From positions 14,037 to 78,036 of the forward strand of contig CAYOER010000001.1 of the NCBI GenBank assembly GCA_964403205.1: 64,000 nt of DNA, written 5' to 3'. This document shows, one piece after another, positions 50,180 to 59,008 of this stretch. Position 1 is the first letter of the stretch; each line of letters starts with the position of its first letter. The DNA comes from an uncultured Candidatus Saccharibacteria bacterium (GTDB lineage Bacteria; Patescibacteriota; Minisyncoccia; Phycocordibacterales; PALSA-1337). The position numbers and the translations under genes are program-made. Under the pieces are notes generated by a model. The model was not told the DNA's origin. It made no database searches and was given only the letters and a program-made list of their open reading frames with translations.

Positions 50180-51982
50180 ATGGAAATTAGAAATATAGCA
50201 ATAATAGCCCATGTGGACCACGGGAAGACTACTCTGACTGACGCTATCATGACTCAATGTGGCCATGGTGATGAAGGTAGTATGGACTCCAATGCTCTAG
50301 AACAAGAGCGTGGTATTACTATTTATGCGAAAAATACTTCAATAAAGTATAAAGATACAAAGATAAATATTGTAGATACTCCTGGACATGCTGATTTCGG
50401 CTCTGAAGTTGAACGTGTATTGCGTTCTATCGATACTGTCCTCCTTGTAGTAGATGCTCAGGAGGGTCCTATGCCACAGACACGCTTCGTATTGAAGAAA
50501 TCTCTAGAATTAGGATTGAAACCTATTGTAGTTATAAATAAAATTGATAAACATGCAGCAAATCCTGAACATGCTCATGAACAGGTATTAGAGCTTTTCA
50601 TGGAGCTTGGTGCAAATGATTCCCAATTAGACTTCCCTACTGTATATGCTATAGGACGTGATGGTGTAGCTATGAAGAAATTAGCAGATGAAAGAAAAGA
50701 TATAACTCCACTTCTAGACACTATATTGGAACATATTCCACCTGCAAATAAAGATCATAGCAATGAATCTCCGCTCACATTGCAGACCTTCAATCTTGGT
50801 TATGACAATTTCCTAGGACGTTTGGCAATCGGTCGTATCTATGATGGGACAATTAAAACTGGACAAACTGTCTTTGAAAAGAAGATAGATGGTTCTGTTT
50901 CCTCAGGAAAAGTTACGAAACTCTTTACATTCGAAGGAAAACAGAGGATAGAAATAGAAGAGGCGAGTGCAGGAGATATTGTGACTATTGCCGGTTTCCC
51001 AAATATATATATTGGAGAGACTATTACAGATAATGAAGCTACCCCTGCTCTACCAGCTATAAGGATAGATGAACCTACTATTTCTCTAAACTTTTTTGTA
51101 AATAATTCCCCTTTTGCTGGACGTGAGGGTAAATTCGTCACTGGTAGGCAGATACGTGAAAGACTAGAGAAAGAATTAGAAGTCAATGTCGGATTAAAAG
51201 TAGATTTTACTTCAAATGAATATTATAGAGTTTTCGGTCGTGGAGAATTGCATATCGCTATTCTATTAGAGAATATGCGTCGTGAAGGTTATGAATTACA
51301 AGTCTCTCAACCACAAGTAATCATAAAAGATATAGCAAATGAAAAAGGTGAAATGATAAAAAGTGAACCATACGAGGAACTCACTATCGATGTACCAGAT
51401 GAATTCACAGGGGCTATTATAGAAAAACTGGGTCAGAGAAAAGCCGTAATGCTCGATATGAAAAATAAAAATGGACAAACACGTATGATATTCGATATTC
51501 CCACTCGTGGTCTACTAGGATATCGTAGTGTTTTCGTAATTGATACAAAGGGTGAAGGAATACTAGGTAGTAGATTCACAGATTTCAGACCTTATGTTGG
51601 AGAAATTGAAAGACATAATACAGGATCAATGACATCTATGATGGCTGGTAAAGCACTAGCATTCGCACTGTGGAATCTACAAGAACGTGGAAGAATATTC
51701 ATAGTGCCAACTACAGAAGTCTATGAAGGAATGGTAGTCGGTGATACATCTAAGGGTGATGATATGGATGTGAATCCATGTAAAGGAAAAGCAATGTCCA
51801 ATATGCGTTCTTCTGGAAATGATGAGCATATTATGCTCACTCCGGCTTGGACGCTAGATATAGAGAAGGGGCTTGAAACAATGCGTGAAGATGAATATCT
51901 AGAGATAACACCTATAAATGTGAGGTTGCGTAAGAGATTTCTGACTGGTACAGATAGAGCTAGAGCGGGGAGGAAAGAATAG
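50180..51982 (+). CDS. typA: translational GTPase TypA/BipA
   Basis: [21 protein letters not shown], the DTPGHADF G-domain, and TypA-specific C-terminal domains. The start is set at MEIRN rather than the upstream ATG at 50120. Confidence 0.9.
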
Positions 51983-52001: not shown

Positions 52002-52805
52002 TTAATAGCAAGTTGTCCCAAGCTTTAATGATTTTGTTAAGTAATACATAGGGTTTTTGAATAATTCTGGTGAGGAAAATCTGAATGAAAATTCCCTCAC
52101 ATATTTTTCTAAATTAGTTGACCAATGATGATGATACATTCTTCTAACAAAAGTACGGTAGTTTCCAAATACTCCTTCGATTTCTGATGTATGAGCAAAT
52201 TCAAATCTTTTATGTATATCTCTACTGTGTTTAACTGGCCACCATTTGTTAATTCCTTTGTAAATCGCTGCACCATCAGTCCACAGTTTAGATCCTGGTT
52301 TAACTTTTCTAAAGAGAAAATATCCTGCATGATGTCTCTGTACTGATGTCCCAATAATGACATCATATGCTAGTTTTCTAGTTCCTTTTTGTTTACCCAT
52401 AACCAATGTCATATCCTTGAAATACGCCTCGTCTAACTGCACTATACGCTCTAGAATGTGGGTTTCCCGTGGTAATTGTCCTCTGAATGTGTCAAACCAC
52501 TTACGTATACAAAGTGGAGATAGTTCTGTAAATGCAACCGTTTGTTTAACTGGTATCTCACAACTCTAACACCAGAGTATCATCCACCACTTTTGAAGTG
52601 GTAATTTTAAATTAGAAAGCCATGTGTGTGACAGGAGAGAGAATCTGATGCGACAATCTTTACACCTATATCGACCTGATTGTATTCCTATTCGTCTCGA
52701 CTTACATTCAGGACAAAATATGTTCTTGCCAAACAATATTCTGCGAATATATTTTCTAATTTGTGCCTCACTTGGTATTTGATTGTGTGTATACATAATG
52801 TCCAT
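52002..52805 (-). pseudogene. IS1595-family (ISXO2-like) transposase disrupted by a frameshift
   Basis: The N-terminal piece (52566-52805) has the zinc ribbon CPECKSRRIG...RYRCKDCRIRFS. The C-terminal piece (52002-52442) has VQLDEAYF (the first D of DDE) and HTSEIEGVFGNYRTFVRRMYHHHW...REFSFRF. The linking segment (KWFDTFRGQLPRETHILERI) is readable only in a different frame from the N-piece. Confidence 0.75.
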
Positions 52806-52828
52806 ATTCTAATATGTATGGGACAACT
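52011..52828 (-). mobile_element. IS1595-like insertion sequence (~0.82 kb) with perfect 10-bp terminal inverted repeats
   Basis: AGTTGTCCCA at 52011-52020 and its reverse complement TGGGACAACT at 52819-52828. The left IR overlaps the transposase stop and the right IR lies just upstream of its start. Confidence 0.65.
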
Positions 52829-52901
52829 GGTATATATTACCCTCCTATTTACTATTGACAAGGATACTAAATCATGATAGTCTCGCATATAGATTCGCAC
52901 C

Positions 52902-53189
52902 ATGAAAAATGCATATCAAATCCTAGGGGTTTCCCCTGCCGCTAGTATAGCGGAAATCAAGGATGCGTACCGAAAACTCTCGGTACATTGGCATCCGGAC
53001 AAAAACAAGAGTCCGGAAGCTGGGCACACCTTTGCCTCGATTTCGGAAGCTTATGGCATCCTCTCTGACTCGCGCAAGCGACAAGAGTTGGATGAAAAGA
53101 TTTCCAAAGGCCAAGTTGAGAATATCAATGAGGTCGTGGAGAGAGTCGTGGATTCATTTCTTGATTCGTTAACTGAACGGAAACACTAA
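52902..53189 (+). CDS. J-domain-only protein (DnaJ N-terminal domain, 95 aa)
   Basis: YQILGVSPAASIAEIKDAYRKLSVHWHPDKN with the HPD tripeptide. G+C is about 50%. Confidence 0.8.
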   Translation: MKNAYQILGVSPAASIAEIKDAYRKLSVHWHPDKNKSPEAGHTFASISEAYGILSDSRKRQELDEKISKGQVENINEVVERVVDSFLDSLTERKH

Positions 53190-53219
53190 TCAACAACAAA
53201 ACAAAGAGAAAGGATACGG

Positions 53220-53648
53220 GTGAGGACACTGAACGTAGTGGTAAATGAACTTCGTGAACAAATTGAGGAGGCTACAGATCCCAAGGATCCAAACAAGCTT
53301 CCACAATACACCGCTTCGCTGCGGGATGGTATTGATTCGTTTGTCTCGATGCTCACTGATGACCCGACGATGGCCGCGCTCGCATTCCACAATCAAATCA
53401 GATACGACAATCAGTCGGTTATGATCAAAATTGTGGAACACGACACGGTATCCGGTAGTGATTGGCCGCTTATCAAGCAGTCGATCCAAGTGCGCCCCGA
53501 TGCGCATAAGGCCGTCAAAACCCTTGAACAAGCTGGGCTCGAAGCAGTATTGGCGACCGCTGTGGCCGCCAACTTCAAGCTCACACAACAACGTCGCGCT
53601 CAACGCGAGGCGTTGGAACAAGAAGAGGAGTACCAAAATGTTGAATGA
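53220..53648 (+). CDS. hypothetical protein (G+C-rich cassette gene 2)
   Basis: A 142-aa ORF with no recognised motif. Its stop overlaps the next start (ATGTTGAATGA). Confidence 0.45.
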   Translation: MRTLNVVVNELREQIEEATDPKDPNKLPQYTASLRDGIDSFVSMLTDDPTMAALAFHNQIRYDNQSVMIKIVEHDTVSGSDWPLIKQSIQVRPDAHKAVKTLEQAGLEAVLATAVAANFKLTQQRRAQREALEQEEEYQNVE

Positions 53649-54351
53649 ACAAGACAAAATGAGTGAGCATGAAAAGCTCGTCACCGTACTTCGTTATCAG
53701 GGTGCATTGGCTGTCGAAAGTCAGCTTGTGGATCTTGCCAATAAGGAGGGTGATGAAGCCATTGTGAGAATCGCCGGAAATCTATCTGCTGCCGAAGTTG
53801 CGCAAGTAACTTCTGAGGCAGATATGGTCAGCCCGTCACTTCTGCATACTGCAGTCAATCTCGAACAGTTCCGCGGAGTATTTCGGCGCATAGGCGTTCG
53901 ATGGAGCTCTGCGGAACAAGAGGATTGCTCACCTGAAACACTTCAGGAACTTCAGGATGAACTCAAACAGTTCTTCTGTGCATTCATTCTTCTGAACGAA
54001 GACGGAAAGCGTCGCGTTGAACTGATGAATGTCATTCTGGACGAGCCGCACGGTATCCATGCCCTAGTCTTCAGTGTCGTCCACGAAAAGGACTTTCTTG
54101 AATTCCTAGAATCCAATGGAAGCACTAGTGATGTCGGGGATTGGCGCGAGGTTATTGGGATCTTGCGTAACAACTTTCCCGAACAGTGGGAACGGTTCAA
54201 GAAAATTTTACCGGACTGTTACAACGGTAATGATTACCTCAACTTCATTCATGAGATCGCCGCTGAAATCTATGCGGTAGCCGTGTCTCAAGGAGCCGTC
54301 AGACGAACAGAAGTCGAAAAAGCGGATGATCTATTTATTCCGCTTGAATAG
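53638..54351 (+). CDS. hypothetical protein (G+C-rich cassette gene 3); start set at MLNEQDK
   Basis: A 238-aa ORF. The longer track ORF from 53431 overlaps gene 2 out of frame and is taken as a 5' over-extension. Confidence 0.4.
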   Translation: MLNEQDKMSEHEKLVTVLRYQGALAVESQLVDLANKEGDEAIVRIAGNLSAAEVAQVTSEADMVSPSLLHTAVNLEQFRGVFRRIGVRWSSAEQEDCSPETLQELQDELKQFFCAFILLNEDGKRRVELMNVILDEPHGIHALVFSVVHEKDFLEFLESNGSTSDVGDWREVIGILRNNFPEQWERFKKILPDCYNGNDYLNFIHEIAAEIYAVAVSQGAVRRTEVEKADDLFIPLE

Positions 54352-54413
54352 GCATGCAAACCAACAGCCTCCCCGAGTGACCCTCCGGGAGGCTGTATTT
54401 CTGAAAGGAATAT

Positions 54414-55388
54414 ATGAATCTGCAAATTAGAGATAAACGAGATCCGTTCACCCAAGCGTTGGCATTTCTTTTCAGAAGCGAGGAGAATGTGCTGACATTA
54501 AGACGAAAGCTCCATAAGGAAATGATTTCTCTTGTGACTCAAGTCGCGGTGAAAATTGGTGGTATCGATACCGAAAAAGCTGTTCGTGATCGTGCATTAG
54601 CGGTATTCACTGGAATCGTAAGTCTCTATCTGATGAATCTAACAAAAGGTTCGAACAATCCTGAAGAATGGTCAAGGATTGTGAGCTCTGGAGATCTCAG
54701 AATACTTTTCCAGCGTGGATATACGATGATACATGAAATCCTTCATGGTCGTTGGAAATTGGAGATTGAAAAGGATGGCAAAAGAATATTCTACGAAACC
54801 AGGACTGAACGACTTGAACAATTCGCTGTTCATCGGATAAATGATCAATGGGCAGGGTATATTCTATACCTCAAGGAAGCAACTTCGCTGAAAGAGGAGA
54901 TTCTCTGGAGTGAATTCGCAAATTGGTTAAAAGACGATTACAGCGGAAAAAGAGAACATAGAAGAATTTCTGAACAGAGCCTTTTTCATGAAGGAGAACT
55001 TTTTGAAGAAGGAGAAATTATCAGAAGAGTGTTCTACCACATCCTTCATTCTGGTAAGCCTTCTTTTATAATGAACTTTCGAATAGCACGTGAGATTGTG
55101 GATCACGCACAGAAAGACAAAAAGTGGCTACAGAAGGCTACAATCAACTACTCCAGATTCGTTACTAGCTTACCACTTCGTTTTCAGGAATGCTTTCTCT
55201 ATCAAGTGAGAGAAGATGAACCGGGAAACAGTATAATGAGCGAAGTATCTTCTGTTTGGAGGAATGTGAAGTGGATATGCAGAAAACGCAAGCATAGCAA
55301 TAGATCAGAAGCAATCGATTCTGTTTGTATTAATACAGGAGTTCCATCTCCTGGACTTAGTAAATCAAACAGAACTACATTCGAATAG
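54414..55388 (+). CDS. hypothetical protein (G+C-rich cassette gene 4)
   Basis: A 324-aa ORF with no recognised motif. Confidence 0.45.
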   Translation: MNLQIRDKRDPFTQALAFLFRSEENVLTLRRKLHKEMISLVTQVAVKIGGIDTEKAVRDRALAVFTGIVSLYLMNLTKGSNNPEEWSRIVSSGDLRILFQRGYTMIHEILHGRWKLEIEKDGKRIFYETRTERLEQFAVHRINDQWAGYILYLKEATSLKEEILWSEFANWLKDDYSGKREHRRISEQSLFHEGELFEEGEIIRRVFYHILHSGKPSFIMNFRIAREIVDHAQKDKKWLQKATINYSRFVTSLPLRFQECFLYQVREDEPGNSIMSEVSSVWRNVKWICRKRKHSNRSEAIDSVCINTGVPSPGLSKSNRTTFE

Positions 55389-55437
55389 CTCAACACAAAA
55401 CCGAAAACTCGTAAGAGTGAGTAGGTTTTTTTTATTA

Positions 55438-56415
55438 TCACCCCCACTTCGTCTTTATATACTCCGTCGTCTCACTCATAGAGAATGGCTGAGTGGAGTT
55501 CCCTACTCTTACAAAAAAGTCTTCTTTTTTATCTCCATTTGTGAGATATGCTGGTTTATGACTTTCTTTTACATCTACAATACAAATCTCTTTATTTTCT
55601 ATTTTCTCAAATTTTATATTTATATATTTAGAAAAAGCTAAACCAATCATATTTTTTATAAGAGTATTAACATAATTTTCAAATCCGTCTTTATCTTTTC
55701 TCTGTTGCAAAGTTTTATAATCATTTTCTAGACCGATTATTTCACCATTATCTCTTACACCGATAAGCAGAATTCCACCAGAAGCATTGAGAAAACCTAC
55801 AATAGTTTTCATAATAGATTTCTCCATTTCCTTATTCATTTCATTCTTACGGATGTCATATCGCAATGTTTCTTTGAATTCTAAAAGTAATCCTTCACCA
55901 TCTTCTATTAAACTCTTTATATCTTTTATGAAAATCTTGCCAGATGAACTATGTACCATTTGCTTTATTATATATACATATTCTTCGAAATTCCCTATAT
56001 TCTTTATTTTTGTCACTCTCTCATTATTATGTTCAAGAATAATAGTGGCATGATTCATCATCCTACCTAGAGGACTCTGATATGTCTCTACAGATGCTAC
56101 GTCAGACAAACCTACACTTTTCTTTTTTCTAAACAAAAGCCCACTTTTCTTTATTATTTCTTTTTCTCTGATTTCATAATGAGAGAAGTACCAATCTAAA
56201 AAGAGAATACCAATATAGATAAATTGAAAAAATGAGAAGATTATTATTTCAAAGATATCAAAACGGATATAATCATGAAAACCAAGATTCCTAAACATCA
56301 TTTCATAATTACCAAGAAAAGAAACGGCAAAGAAGAATAGAGAAGCGATAATTTCCATAGCTATTAGATTGCGTAGGAAAACCAATGGTCCTTCTTTTAT
56401 TATTATTACTCTCAT
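55438..56415 (-). CDS. membrane protein fusing a bPH_2 (YdbS/YdbT-like bacterial PH) domain to a Schlafen-type AlbA_2 putative DNA/RNA-binding domain
   Basis: N-terminal two TM helices plus KKSGLLFRKKKSVGLSDVASVETYQSPLGRMMNHATIILE (bPH_2). C-terminal EGLLLEFKETL...KTIVGFLNASGGILLIGVRDNGEIIGLEND (AlbA_2 pattern EFK..FaNt.GG.lliGv.d.G.i.G). Confidence 0.55.
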   Translation of the reverse strand: MRVIIIKEGPLVFLRNLIAMEIIASLFFFAVSFLGNYEMMFRNLGFHDYIRFDIFEIIIFSFFQFIYIGILFLDWYFSHYEIREKEIIKKSGLLFRKKKSVGLSDVASVETYQSPLGRMMNHATIILEHNNERVTKIKNIGNFEEYVYIIKQMVHSSSGKIFIKDIKSLIEDGEGLLLEFKETLRYDIRKNEMNKEMEKSIMKTIVGFLNASGGILLIGVRDNGEIIGLENDYKTLQQRKDKDGFENYVNTLIKNMIGLAFSKYINIKFEKIENKEICIVDVKESHKPAYLTNGDKKEDFFVRVGNSTQPFSMSETTEYIKTKWG

Positions 56416-56419
56416 ATGG

Positions 56420-57115
56420 CTATTCTAACATAATTTTAGTCCTTTTTATCGAATACGCTATAGCACCTATTCCCATATCCTTCCCTATTCTATCCGCTAG
56501 ACTCCGCATATATGTTCCACTGGAACAAACAACTTTCAACTTTATTATTTTAAATTGATTTTTTGCAAATTTCTTTCCATACTTTTCCCATTTATCTATT
56601 ATCTTTTCCTGACGGAAATCCCCTTTTACTTTTTTTATTTTTTCTATACTTTCTCTAGCTATTTCTTCTCCACTTTTCTCTATTTCAACTAATTTATTAA
56701 TAGAATAAATCTGTACCTCTTTACTTGGTATTTCATCTGGTATTTCTTTCATTGCAATTATTTTTGATGAATATCTAGGATACTTTTGTATATATCTGCC
56801 TATATATTTTTCTAATTCAATCTTATTTATTTTATTTATATTTATATTCTTTATTAATCCAAGAATATCATAGCTATCAGTTTCTAAACCAAACAAAACC
56901 TCTATTTCATATTCTTTATCTAAACCTGTATATTTATCTTTATTTTTACACTCTTCACCGATGAGGATGATGAGCATTCCTTCTGCCATCGGATCTAGTC
57001 TACCTGCATAAGTCATAGACACACTCTTATCTATACCGTTTTCTATACGGATTCTTTCTAGACATTCTAGTGGTGTCTCCCCTATTACTTTATTGCAAAT
57101 AATGACATTTTTCAT
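56420..57115 (-). CDS. truB: tRNA pseudouridine(55) synthase TruB-family (short form)
   Basis: MTYAGRLDPMAEGMLIILIGEECK (G-x-x-G-TLDP-x-A-x-G-L-L). Confidence 0.7.
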   Translation of the reverse strand: MKNVIICNKVIGETPLECLERIRIENGIDKSVSMTYAGRLDPMAEGMLIILIGEECKNKDKYTGLDKEYEIEVLFGLETDSYDILGLIKNININKINKIELEKYIGRYIQKYPRYSSKIIAMKEIPDEIPSKEVQIYSINKLVEIEKSGEEIARESIEKIKKVKGDFRQEKIIDKWEKYGKKFAKNQFKIIKLKVVCSSGTYMRSLADRIGKDMGIGAIAYSIKRTKIMLE

Positions 57116-58423: not shown

Positions 58424-59008
58424 ATGAGACTGATAACATTTGATATTGAAACAAAGAATTTCTTTCAAGATGTAGGATCAAATGATCCGAAAGCTCTTGA
58501 TATTTCTGTTTTATGTATTCATGATTCTCTAGATAATAGCTATAAGAGTTTCCAAGAAAAAGACTTTCCCCTATTATGGCCTATTATAGAGAAGACAGAT
58601 GCATTGATCACATGGAATGGCGATCATTTCGATATTCCTATTCTTAATAAATATTATTCAGGAGATCTTACAAAGATAAAAAGCATAGATTTGATGAAAG
58701 AAATGAAGGATGTATTAGGAAAAAGGCTGAAACTTGATACAGTAGCAGAAGCGACTTTGGGAAAAAAGAAAAGTGGGAATGGCATGGAGGCGGTGTATTG
58801 GTGGAGAAATGGTGAAATAGATAAAATAATCAAATATTGTATAGAAGATGTAAGGATTACGAAAGAACTCTATGACTATGCAATTGCAAATAAAAGCTTG
58901 AAATACAAGGATCTAGGAGCAAATGGAGCAATATACGAAGTGAAATTAAATACAGATAATTGGGAGAAAAAGGAGGATAATGCCATGACTTTTACTTTAC
59001 CGTTCTAA
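58424..59008 (+). CDS. RNase H-like 3'-5' exonuclease (DEDD/YprB-like)
   Basis: ITFDIETKNFF (Exo I-like) and ITWNGDHFDIPIL (Exo II-like). Confidence 0.4.
   Translation: MRLITFDIETKNFFQDVGSNDPKALDISVLCIHDSLDNSYKSFQEKDFPLLWPIIEKTDALITWNGDHFDIPILNKYYSGDLTKIKSIDLMKEMKDVLGKRLKLDTVAEATLGKKKSGNGMEAVYWWRNGEIDKIIKYCIEDVRITKELYDYAIANKSLKYKDLGANGAIYEVKLNTDNWEKKEDNAMTFTLPF

Follow-up and report, generated by a model that had tools for sequence, protein, structure and literature searches.

The 64,000-nucleotide stretch of DNA analyzed here (the window; contig CAYOER010000001.1 of an uncultured Candidatus Saccharibacteria bacterium) encodes on its minus strand, at 55438-56415, a 325-residue protein (stop codon 55438-55440). 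The open reading frame (ORF) list, Pfam matches and at least 434 clusters of homologues with the same architecture confirm that this gene is a real fusion, in which an anchor of two transmembrane (TM) helices and a bacterial pleckstrin homology (PH) domain of the bPH_2 type are joined to a Schlafen-type domain. The best explanation of the protein, to which we assign a probability of about 45%, is that it is a single-polypeptide membrane-tethered Schlafen endoribonuclease with a built-in switch linking the state of the membrane or envelope to RNA cleavage. We favor a built-in switch because the gene is chromosomal, single-copy, vertically inherited and probably co-transcribed with truB. The biochemical core of this model is probably correct; that its biological role is as a physiological stress or growth-arrest switch is a more tentative proposal.

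From the computed architecture, predicted topology, motif conservation, synteny and distribution of the protein we infer RNase activity, a tRNA substrate, oligomerization and gating, which would fit together as follows. The N-terminal 157 residues, built on the plan of YdbS, would anchor the protein in the membrane and probably assemble it into an oligomer, and the flexible linker that follows would hold the Schlafen domain, with its Ex4ExK...D metal-dependent site, just under the membrane. A membrane-borne cue would then change the assembly state of the TM-PH portion and so rearrange the single-lobe Schlafen (Slfn) domains into active pairs, which would cut tRNA or another structured RNA and thereby arrest translation. 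Envelope stress, energy stress and an attack by phage at the membrane are all candidate triggers. Such a scheme is consistent with the behavior of the prokaryotic Schlafens studied so far, in which the Slfn tRNase effector is inactive until a fused sensor shifts its oligomeric state, the Cash dodecamer becoming a filament and RorSlfn5 oligomerizing (PMC13056530, PMC13462974). Likewise, PHb domains form rings, and 2TM-PHb families have been proposed to oligomerize at the membrane (Xu 2010).

Domain architecture and active site

Both domains score above their Pfam gathering cut-offs, bPH_2 (PF03703) with 43.3 bits against 22 (E 4e-11, residues 75-144) and SLFN_AlbA_2 (PF04326) with 74.4 bits against 25.3 (E 1e-20, residues 175-311); NCBIfam has no match for the 325-residue protein. 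A first-pass annotation, made from the letters of the window alone, had proposed these two domains, two TM helices and a YdbS-type plan, and all of this is borne out: the helices are seen in hydropathy and in an AlphaFold2 (AF2) model, and the pair is followed by a cytoplasmic PH domain, as in YdbS. The AF2 model is of a monomer, with a predicted template-modelling score (pTM) of 0.58. The bPH_2 domain has the PH fold, a beta-sandwich with a C-terminal helix cap, and the C-terminal domain has the Schlafen/AlbA_2 fold, the top structural matches being the AlbA_2 domains of SAMD9 and DIP2311, both of which bind nucleic acid.

The protein, all of whose parts are encoded on the minus strand, starts with a segment predicted to be cytoplasmic (residues 1-10, 56386-56415) that contains invariant K7, G9 and P10 and an AF2 beta-strand at residues 4-7. 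PH domains of the PF03703 type have no beta-1 strand of their own (Xu 2010), and this N-terminal strand may stand in for it. TM helix 1 (residues 11-33, 56317-56385; hydropathy, and helix 10-33 in the AF2 model) carries invariant M20 and the invariant, membrane-embedded E21, and TM helix 2 (residues 53-77, 56185-56259; hydropathy, and AF2 helix 52-77) carries invariant Q64, F72, W75 and Y76. The loop between them (residues 34-52, 56260-56316), assigned as extracytoplasmic from the distribution of lysine and arginine, contains an invariant Y37; with a conservation of 0.54 it is second only to the linker as the least conserved region in an alignment of 79 orthologues. Next come the cytoplasmic bPH_2 domain with its C-terminal helix at residues 143-157 (55945-56184; Pfam match at residues 75-144), the flexible linker (residues 158-168, 55912-55944), in which the predicted local distance difference test (pLDDT) of the AF2 model drops below 50 at residues 160-163 and conservation reaches 0.44, the lowest of all regions, and the C-terminal Schlafen/AlbA_2 nuclease-type domain (residues 169-325, 55441-55911). 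Twelve lysines and arginines follow TM helix 2, the N-terminus is basic and the 19-residue loop is neutral, a positive-inside pattern. The predicted topology thus has the N-terminus inside, two TM helices, and both the bPH_2 and Schlafen domains in the cytoplasm, in line with the intracellular PHb domains predicted for 2TM families (Xu 2010).

The Schlafen domain bears a complete putative active site. Its Ex4ExK motif, E174-G-L-L-L-E179-F-K181, lies at 55873-55896 (EGLLLEFK by direct translation), and a third acidic residue, D222 of a 'GVxD' motif, lies at 55750-55752. All four residues, E174, E179, K181 and D222, are invariant in family alignments of 30 sequences and then of 79 orthologues, and Ex4(E/D)xK is kept in 147 of the best 150 representatives from a profile search. 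This is the active-site motif of prokaryotic and human Schlafen nucleases (PMC13056530). A profile made from the domain alone matches the nuclease C-lobes of SLFN14, SLFN11, SLFN13, SLFN12 and SLFN5 with E-values of 1e-9 to 1e-7; in the alignment, E174, E179 and K181 correspond to SLFN14 E206, E211 and K213, and D222 to the second aspartate of the SLFN14 'GVDD' (D249). The Protein Data Bank holds inactivating mutants at aligned positions, SLFN14-E211A and SLFN11-E209A. CbCash is matched weakly by the domain profile (E 0.016), and its Mg2+-dependent triad E17-D22-K24 (PMC13462974) is paired with E174, E179 and K181 by motif register rather than by alignment. At the level of sequence, the putative nuclease competence of the domain is thus well supported.

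The membrane half of the protein is constrained almost as strongly as the nuclease half (conservation 0.66-0.72 and 0.75, respectively, in the 79 orthologues), and its invariant positions include the polar residues E21 and Q64 within the TM helices and the N-terminal K7-x-G9-P10. This half therefore does more than passively anchor the protein. The intramembrane E21 and Q64 would also suit an arrangement in which the roles are reversed, the Schlafen/AlbA_2 domain acting as a nucleic-acid sensor and a YdbS-like TM-PH ring as a pore or transporter effector that would, for example, permeabilize the membrane or drive export once foreign or abnormal DNA or RNA is bound, or the protein serving to tether DNA at the membrane during uptake. 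To this reading can be added that 2TM-PHb proteins have been proposed to be oligomeric pores or transporters (Xu 2010), that the bPH_2 proteins DdE and DdF are required for the export of a leaderless bacteriocin, that the AlbA_2 domains of SAMD9 and DIP2311 are nucleic-acid binders, and that type IV pilus genes lie beyond typA, the gene that converges on ours. We nevertheless consider it quite improbable: a pure binder has no need of the full invariant Ex4ExK and aspartate set, the Slfn part is the effector and its partner the sensor in surveyed prokaryotic Schlafens (PMC13056530), and no conserved YdbT-like partner or transporter gene is found nearby. In particular, no second PF03703 (YdbT-like) gene is present among the neighbors in the window or at three of the relatives' loci (L001, L003 and L005), nor does one occur among the top families in a scan of neighboring genes.

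Distribution and genomic context

A word-indexed search returned at least 434 clusters of homologues, at 90% identity, that share the architecture. The best 120 of these, all from metagenome-assembled genomes of Patescibacteria, are 62-76% identical to the query, invariably contain both PF03703 and SLFN_AlbA_2, and are 313-346 residues long apart from one 237-residue fragment. An exhaustive search with a profile, run over representatives at 50% identity, yielded 1013 proteins with E<=1e-30. Scanning each GTDB species through a single genome, we found 94 relatives, placing the gene in at least 94 species of Paceibacteria-type Patescibacteria; 80 loci from distinct assemblies were kept (47-78% identity), which are labelled Taylorbacteria, Nomurabacteria, Vogelbacteria, Paceibacterota or Parcubacteria. 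Across the family the gene is single-copy and its length is fixed at about 324 residues. Mean pairwise identity over the same genome pairs is 0.61-0.63 for the gene, compared with 0.54 for HisRS, 0.56 for TruB, 0.80 for TypA and 0.71 for a neighboring exonuclease. No relatives were found on IMG/VR contigs, and phage records gave four weak matches only, at 25-33% identity. We read the gene as chromosomal and vertically inherited in a large Paceibacteria clade.

In the window the gene is preceded on the same strand by truB (56420-57115, minus strand; Pfam TruB_N), which encodes tRNA pseudouridine-55 synthase. Four nucleotides (CCAT) separate the truB TAG from the ATG of the gene; a scan for promoters and terminators gave nothing above chance, and neither the junction of truB with the gene nor the stretch from the gene to the cassette beyond it contains a recognizable terminator. 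By position truB is a probable operon partner, and we treat it as context, since a functional partnership is not proven. The dominant gene order in the 80 species loci is exonuclease and hisS reading leftward, truB and the bPH-Schlafen gene reading rightward, a variable slot, typA reading leftward, and T2SSE and T2SSF reading rightward, with type IV pilus genes beyond typA. A co-directional truB lies -4 to 70 nt upstream of the gene in 30 of the 76 loci with enough flank, and directly downstream of it at two others (L043 and L056). Elsewhere the co-directional upstream gene is pth (seven loci) or, in other lineages, ddl; rplS is also found nearby. typA (typA/bipA; 50180-51982 of the window, plus strand) is the ancestral convergent neighbor of the gene, being convergent in all 47 typA-bearing loci; the two gene ends can be as little as 2 nt or as much as 3.5 kb apart, and in 12 loci they are separated by less than 100 nt. 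The remaining neighbors, sampled as 149 representatives that stand for 304 ORFs, are mostly rpoB/C, pyrG, ftsZ, pth, dus, ddl, adk and bacA. The exonuclease just mentioned, a 194-residue RNase_H_2/PolB-exo-like 3'-5' enzyme at 58424-59008 (plus strand) in the window, stands beside hisS in 35 of the 80 loci and, at 0.71 mean pairwise identity, is better conserved than HisRS or TruB.

The probable operon with truB invites the speculation that TruB pairing reflects a T-loop-modification-dependent surveillance of tRNA, given that CbCash, the one prokaryotic Schlafen of characterized structure, cleaves the T-loop immediately 5' of U55, which is the target of TruB (PMC13462974). As CbCash cuts unmodified as well as native tRNA, and distant full-length members of the family sit beside other genes (uvrC-ddl, ndk with a tRNA-U5 methyltransferase, or cotH), a specific functional pairing with truB is reduced to just that, speculation.

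An independent view of the distribution came from 80 metagenome loci retrieved with TypA only and thus without reference to the Schlafen gene. The gene is present in all TypA-anchored loci whose HisS is about 70% identical to that of the window. Several findings, nevertheless, weigh against a built-in physiological switch. The gene occurs in only 9 of the 56 TypA-anchored loci with at least 1.5 kb of downstream sequence. At two loci of sister lineages (L103 and L117) the T2SSE-typA-truB-hisS block is kept with the site of the gene empty, the typA-truB interval being about 450 nt (L103, 9780-10229) or 433 nt (L117, 9870-10302) and free of any gene remnant detectable by tblastn (E<=10) or the family hidden Markov model, and a third (L118, 6548-7843) has an unrelated 431-residue membrane protein at the same position. 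The link to truB is restricted to one subclade. PHb ring structures have been solved only for PF08000, not for PF03703, and our AF2 model is monomeric. The same Schlafen module is found fused to DUF262, HsdR, STAND and TIR, and the adjacent slot holds HicAB, MazF and AbiEii, all of which would fit defence equally well. A conserved motif seen in sequence is, moreover, no guarantee of tRNase activity; some eukaryotic SLFNs with the motif reportedly mainly bind DNA.

Because the typA-truB junction is empty in L103 and L117 and occupied by another gene in L118, the junction is itself a variable islet, in which the bPH-Schlafen gene is of long standing and, in one large clade, has become fixed. We rejected the idea that it is a universal core housekeeping gene on account of the 9 of 56 TypA-anchored loci and the true empty sites. 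The same observations bear on whether the protein could be a constitutive membrane RNase, placed like RNase Y or RNase E, that processes or decays tRNA or rRNA precursors or mRNA in RNase-poor genomes. Its operon-like linkage to truB or pth, the nearby hisS, typA and rplS, its core-gene neighbors in general and its housekeeping-like rate of evolution would all suit such an enzyme, which is however dispensable, since the close lineages L103 and L117 have the same block without the gene or a remnant of it and the gene is missing from most TypA-anchored loci. Studied Schlafen nucleases are, besides, tightly regulated toxins, and we give constitutive activity little chance of being the answer.

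The typA slot, the Schlafen module elsewhere and the case for defence

The first-pass annotation had pointed out that the gene adjoins an insertion sequence (IS) and a horizontally acquired cassette. The adjacency is real in the window and proves to be incidental: in relatives the gene and typA lie tail-to-tail around a slot that takes up unrelated small cassettes, and the IS and cassette are therefore a secondary insertion between two ancestral neighbors. This convergent junction is an insertion hotspot across species (L008-L086; for example L039 7005-7863, L021 7064-10375 and L078 2855-4702). Among relatives it contains HicA/HicB (3-4 loci), MazF, AbiEii, an NYN nuclease, Bro-N, IS elements and two PADLOC candidate families; no recurring partner gene is found among the slot ORFs, and at most 6 of the 69 slot ORFs have PADLOC matches. 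One slot ORF, perhaps L008:7081-8283 or L014:7490-8770, matches the PADLOC candidate PDC-S13 at E 2e-133.

At 3455 nt the slot of the window is among the largest. The block inserted in it (52002-55388), defined by Pfam matches, GC profile and slot comparison, is not part of the system discussed here. Directly after typA it has a split transposase of the IS1595/ISXO2 family (52002-52805, minus strand; Zn-ribbon ORF 52566-52805 and DDE ORF 52002-52442), which is either a decayed copy or an indel artefact. There follows a GC-rich cassette (52902-55388, plus strand) that encodes a 95-residue J-domain protein, an AtcA-like ORF and a 324-residue ORF without a Pfam match. In the window the AtcA-like ORF is broken into two pieces (53220-53648 and 53431-54351); it is intact, with 370 residues and a Pfam AtcA match, at locus L092 (1455-3931; ENA ERZ28563774 scaffold_13147), an independent assembly from the same population that is 99.47% identical to window positions 52891-56842 with 19 gap positions. 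On the strength of this AtcA match and the 95-residue J-domain protein, the cassette looks like a co-chaperone operon of the AtcJ/AtcA type, possibly with AtcB, rather than a defence system; the AtcJ/AtcA co-chaperone operon is known from cold adaptation in Shewanella (PMC6715715). The tryptophan of the C-terminal PX7W is missing from the J-domain protein, and the cassette shows no AtcC. Conversely, the bPH-Schlafen gene is intact in the window and frameshifted in L092 (237 and 70 residues). These reciprocal frameshifts could be indel errors or population variants, and so other split ORFs in the window need to be read with caution. With an AtcJ/AtcA-like cassette in a general insertion site, we rejected the adjacency as a sign of a defence island.

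Beyond this family, the same Schlafen subfamily (E ~1e-45) occurs C-terminal to DUF262/GmrSD_N with or without HNH, to type I HsdR helicase, STAND NTPase and TIR modules, and also after LRR-TPR, WD40 and pentapeptide repeats. Because one subfamily follows so many different N-terminal modules, the Schlafen module is, judged by its sequence contexts, a portable effector. A link to the membrane is a recurrent feature of this Schlafen clade: of the best 150 representatives, 57 have the 2TM-PH-sized arrangement and 19 a TM-SLFN one, while SBP_bac_3-TM-SLFN accounts for about 10 and a polytopic form, with 4-6 TM helices, for 2. The other membrane-linked variants are found beside rpmB/adk, rpiB or MscS/TrkAH.

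Members of the SBP_bac_3 group (P0208, P0218, P0219, P0231, P0235, P0244, P0252, P0255 and P0266; for instance at L091 789-2201 and L177 6001-7335) are 430-470 residues long and run from a signal peptide or TM helix through a periplasmic solute-binding domain (SBP_bac_3) and another TM helix to the same Schlafen module, whose Ex4ExK is intact. Their layout resembles that of one-component transmembrane receptors with a putative RNase output, and we found no description of this architecture in the literature examined. Genes for patatin and MscS adjoin those of a weak-bPH-Slfn protein (L094 3192-6265) and a 6TM-Slfn protein (L178 2874-10173), the second of which also has TrkA/TrkH nearby; a link to membrane tension or osmotic state is possible, but chance may explain an adjacency seen in two lineages only. 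A further variant with two TM helices and no PH domain (P0157, L087 1704-2839) is preceded by a 133-residue ORF that overlaps it by 4 nt and has no Pfam match; in other contigs the preceding ORF has 335 residues. That our gene belongs to a new clade of transmembrane-signalling Schlafen RNases, converting membrane or extracytoplasmic cues directly into tRNA cleavage and physiological, non-immune growth arrest with T-loop surveillance by way of the TruB operon, is an extended version of the proposal that we regard as rather unlikely.

The chief competitor of the physiological switch is a dedicated anti-phage abortive-infection effector, whose TM-PH part would sense DNA injection, a holin or depolarization and release the Schlafen tRNase, so that the infected cell is killed or arrested. 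The gene would then be a long-fixed inhabitant of a minor defence islet located between typA and truB. The characterized prokaryotic Schlafens are indeed antiphage tRNases (PMC13056530, PMC13462974), and 69.6% of prokaryotic Schlafen (pSlfn) genes lie near defence genes (PMC13056530). The Schlafen subfamily found here recurs behind DUF262, the architecture of EcoSlfn7, and behind HsdR, STAND and TIR modules; its presence varies at a single syntenic site (L103, L117 and L118); and the neighboring slot includes HicAB, MazF, AbiEii, NYN, PDC-S13 and IS elements. There is also a weak PADLOC match to pAgo, confined to the Schlafen part, which we set aside as an identification of the system, as it is explained by Schlafen-pAgo fusions.

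Against a defence role, the gene is single-copy and keeps strict synteny across at least 80 species loci, where identity is 51-78%; it is fixed in length, slower to evolve than HisRS or TruB, and absent from viral contigs. It is probably co-transcribed with housekeeping genes, either 4 nt downstream of truB or with pth or ddl, and other membrane-linked variants sit beside rpmB/adk, rpiB and MscS/Trk. Known defence genes are rare in its vicinity: PADLOC matches no more than 6 of the 69 slot ORFs and, among the 149 neighbor representatives, gives only a handful of matches, mostly to generic ATPases plus one reverse transcriptase. Defence-associated pSlfn genes have been defined by a defence score above 0.5, most family members lying within 10 kb of known defence genes (PMC13056530); by PADLOC on the ±6 kb flanks our gene shows no such association, in a phylum whose defence systems are poorly catalogued.

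The first-pass annotation had suggested a membrane-located nucleic-acid-sensing or abortive-infection role and a search for defence islands, and had named a housekeeping context in homologues as contrary to it. The invariant motif upholds a nucleic-acid enzyme at the membrane, and the defence half of the argument has become weak: PADLOC matches in the ±6 kb flanks are few and mostly generic, and homologues do share a conserved housekeeping context of truB, pth, hisS and typA, which argues against a defence-island gene. Overall, we consider an antiphage effector somewhat unlikely and prefer the membrane-gated physiological switch.

Comparison with known systems

The domain pair is already present in databases, where its names include 'RNA-binding domain-containing protein' and 'membrane protein YdbS with pleckstrin-like domain'. 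It was not until 2026 that prokaryotic Schlafens were shown to act as antiphage tRNases coupled to a sensor. With the pSlfn tRNases RorSlfn5 (Ig-like-Slfn), EcoSlfn7 (DUF262-Slfn) and CbCash (Slfn-Csx15), of which EcoSlfn7 is experimentally validated (PMC13056530), our protein shares the fold and the Ex4(E/D)xK motif, as well as the joining of nuclease and regulatory module in a single polypeptide; characterized pSlfn members are controlled by oligomerization. It differs from them in that the partner is a membrane module of two TM helices and bPH_2, with Slfn C-terminal, and in its slow, vertical inheritance within a housekeeping context rather than a defence island. The main texts of two 2026 pSlfn surveys (PMC13056530, PMC13462974) do not mention membrane, transmembrane or PH fusions. 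If our reading is correct, membrane state would be a new class of regulatory input for Schlafen nucleases. About 30% of prokaryotic Schlafens have no link to defence genes, and the gene, fixed in a housekeeping operon of Patescibacteria that are ultra-small and depend on a host, would be a candidate example of these; it would also offer a testable handle on translation shutdown in genome-reduced bacteria.

The eukaryotic counterparts, the nuclease C-lobes of SLFN11/12/13/14 and the AlbA_2 tRNase domain of SAMD9, provide a different contrast. Eukaryotic SLFNs are soluble and two-lobed, with linker and helicase domains, whereas the protein described here is single-lobed and membrane-tethered, and would need at least a dimer to form an active groove. 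RNase Y and RNase E set the precedent for RNA cleavage organized at the membrane; to our knowledge, both are universal within their lineages and neither has the Schlafen fold. They have no homology to the 55438-56415 protein, and what all three have in common is a TM anchor combined with a cytoplasmic nucleic-acid-related domain. Among membrane-linked immune effectors with a cytoplasmic sensor, the CRISPR effector Cam1 (cited in PMC13462974) has the same combination, again without homology, and its effector is the part in the membrane.

The closest relatives of the N-terminal 157 residues are YdbS/YdbT and DdE/DdF, the plan being that of YdbS, in which a pair of TM helices is joined to a single PHb2-type domain in the cytoplasm. 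Proteins like YdbS measure about 140-160 residues, have no enzymatic domain and are paired with a YdbT-like partner with three PH domains and six TM helices, whereas here a nuclease is appended to the module. The known link of YdbS and DdE/DdF is to bacteriocin export or resistance; if the proposed switch is correct, the bPH-Schlafen protein would represent the first enzymatic output for this widespread and functionally obscure YdbS/bPH_2 membrane module.

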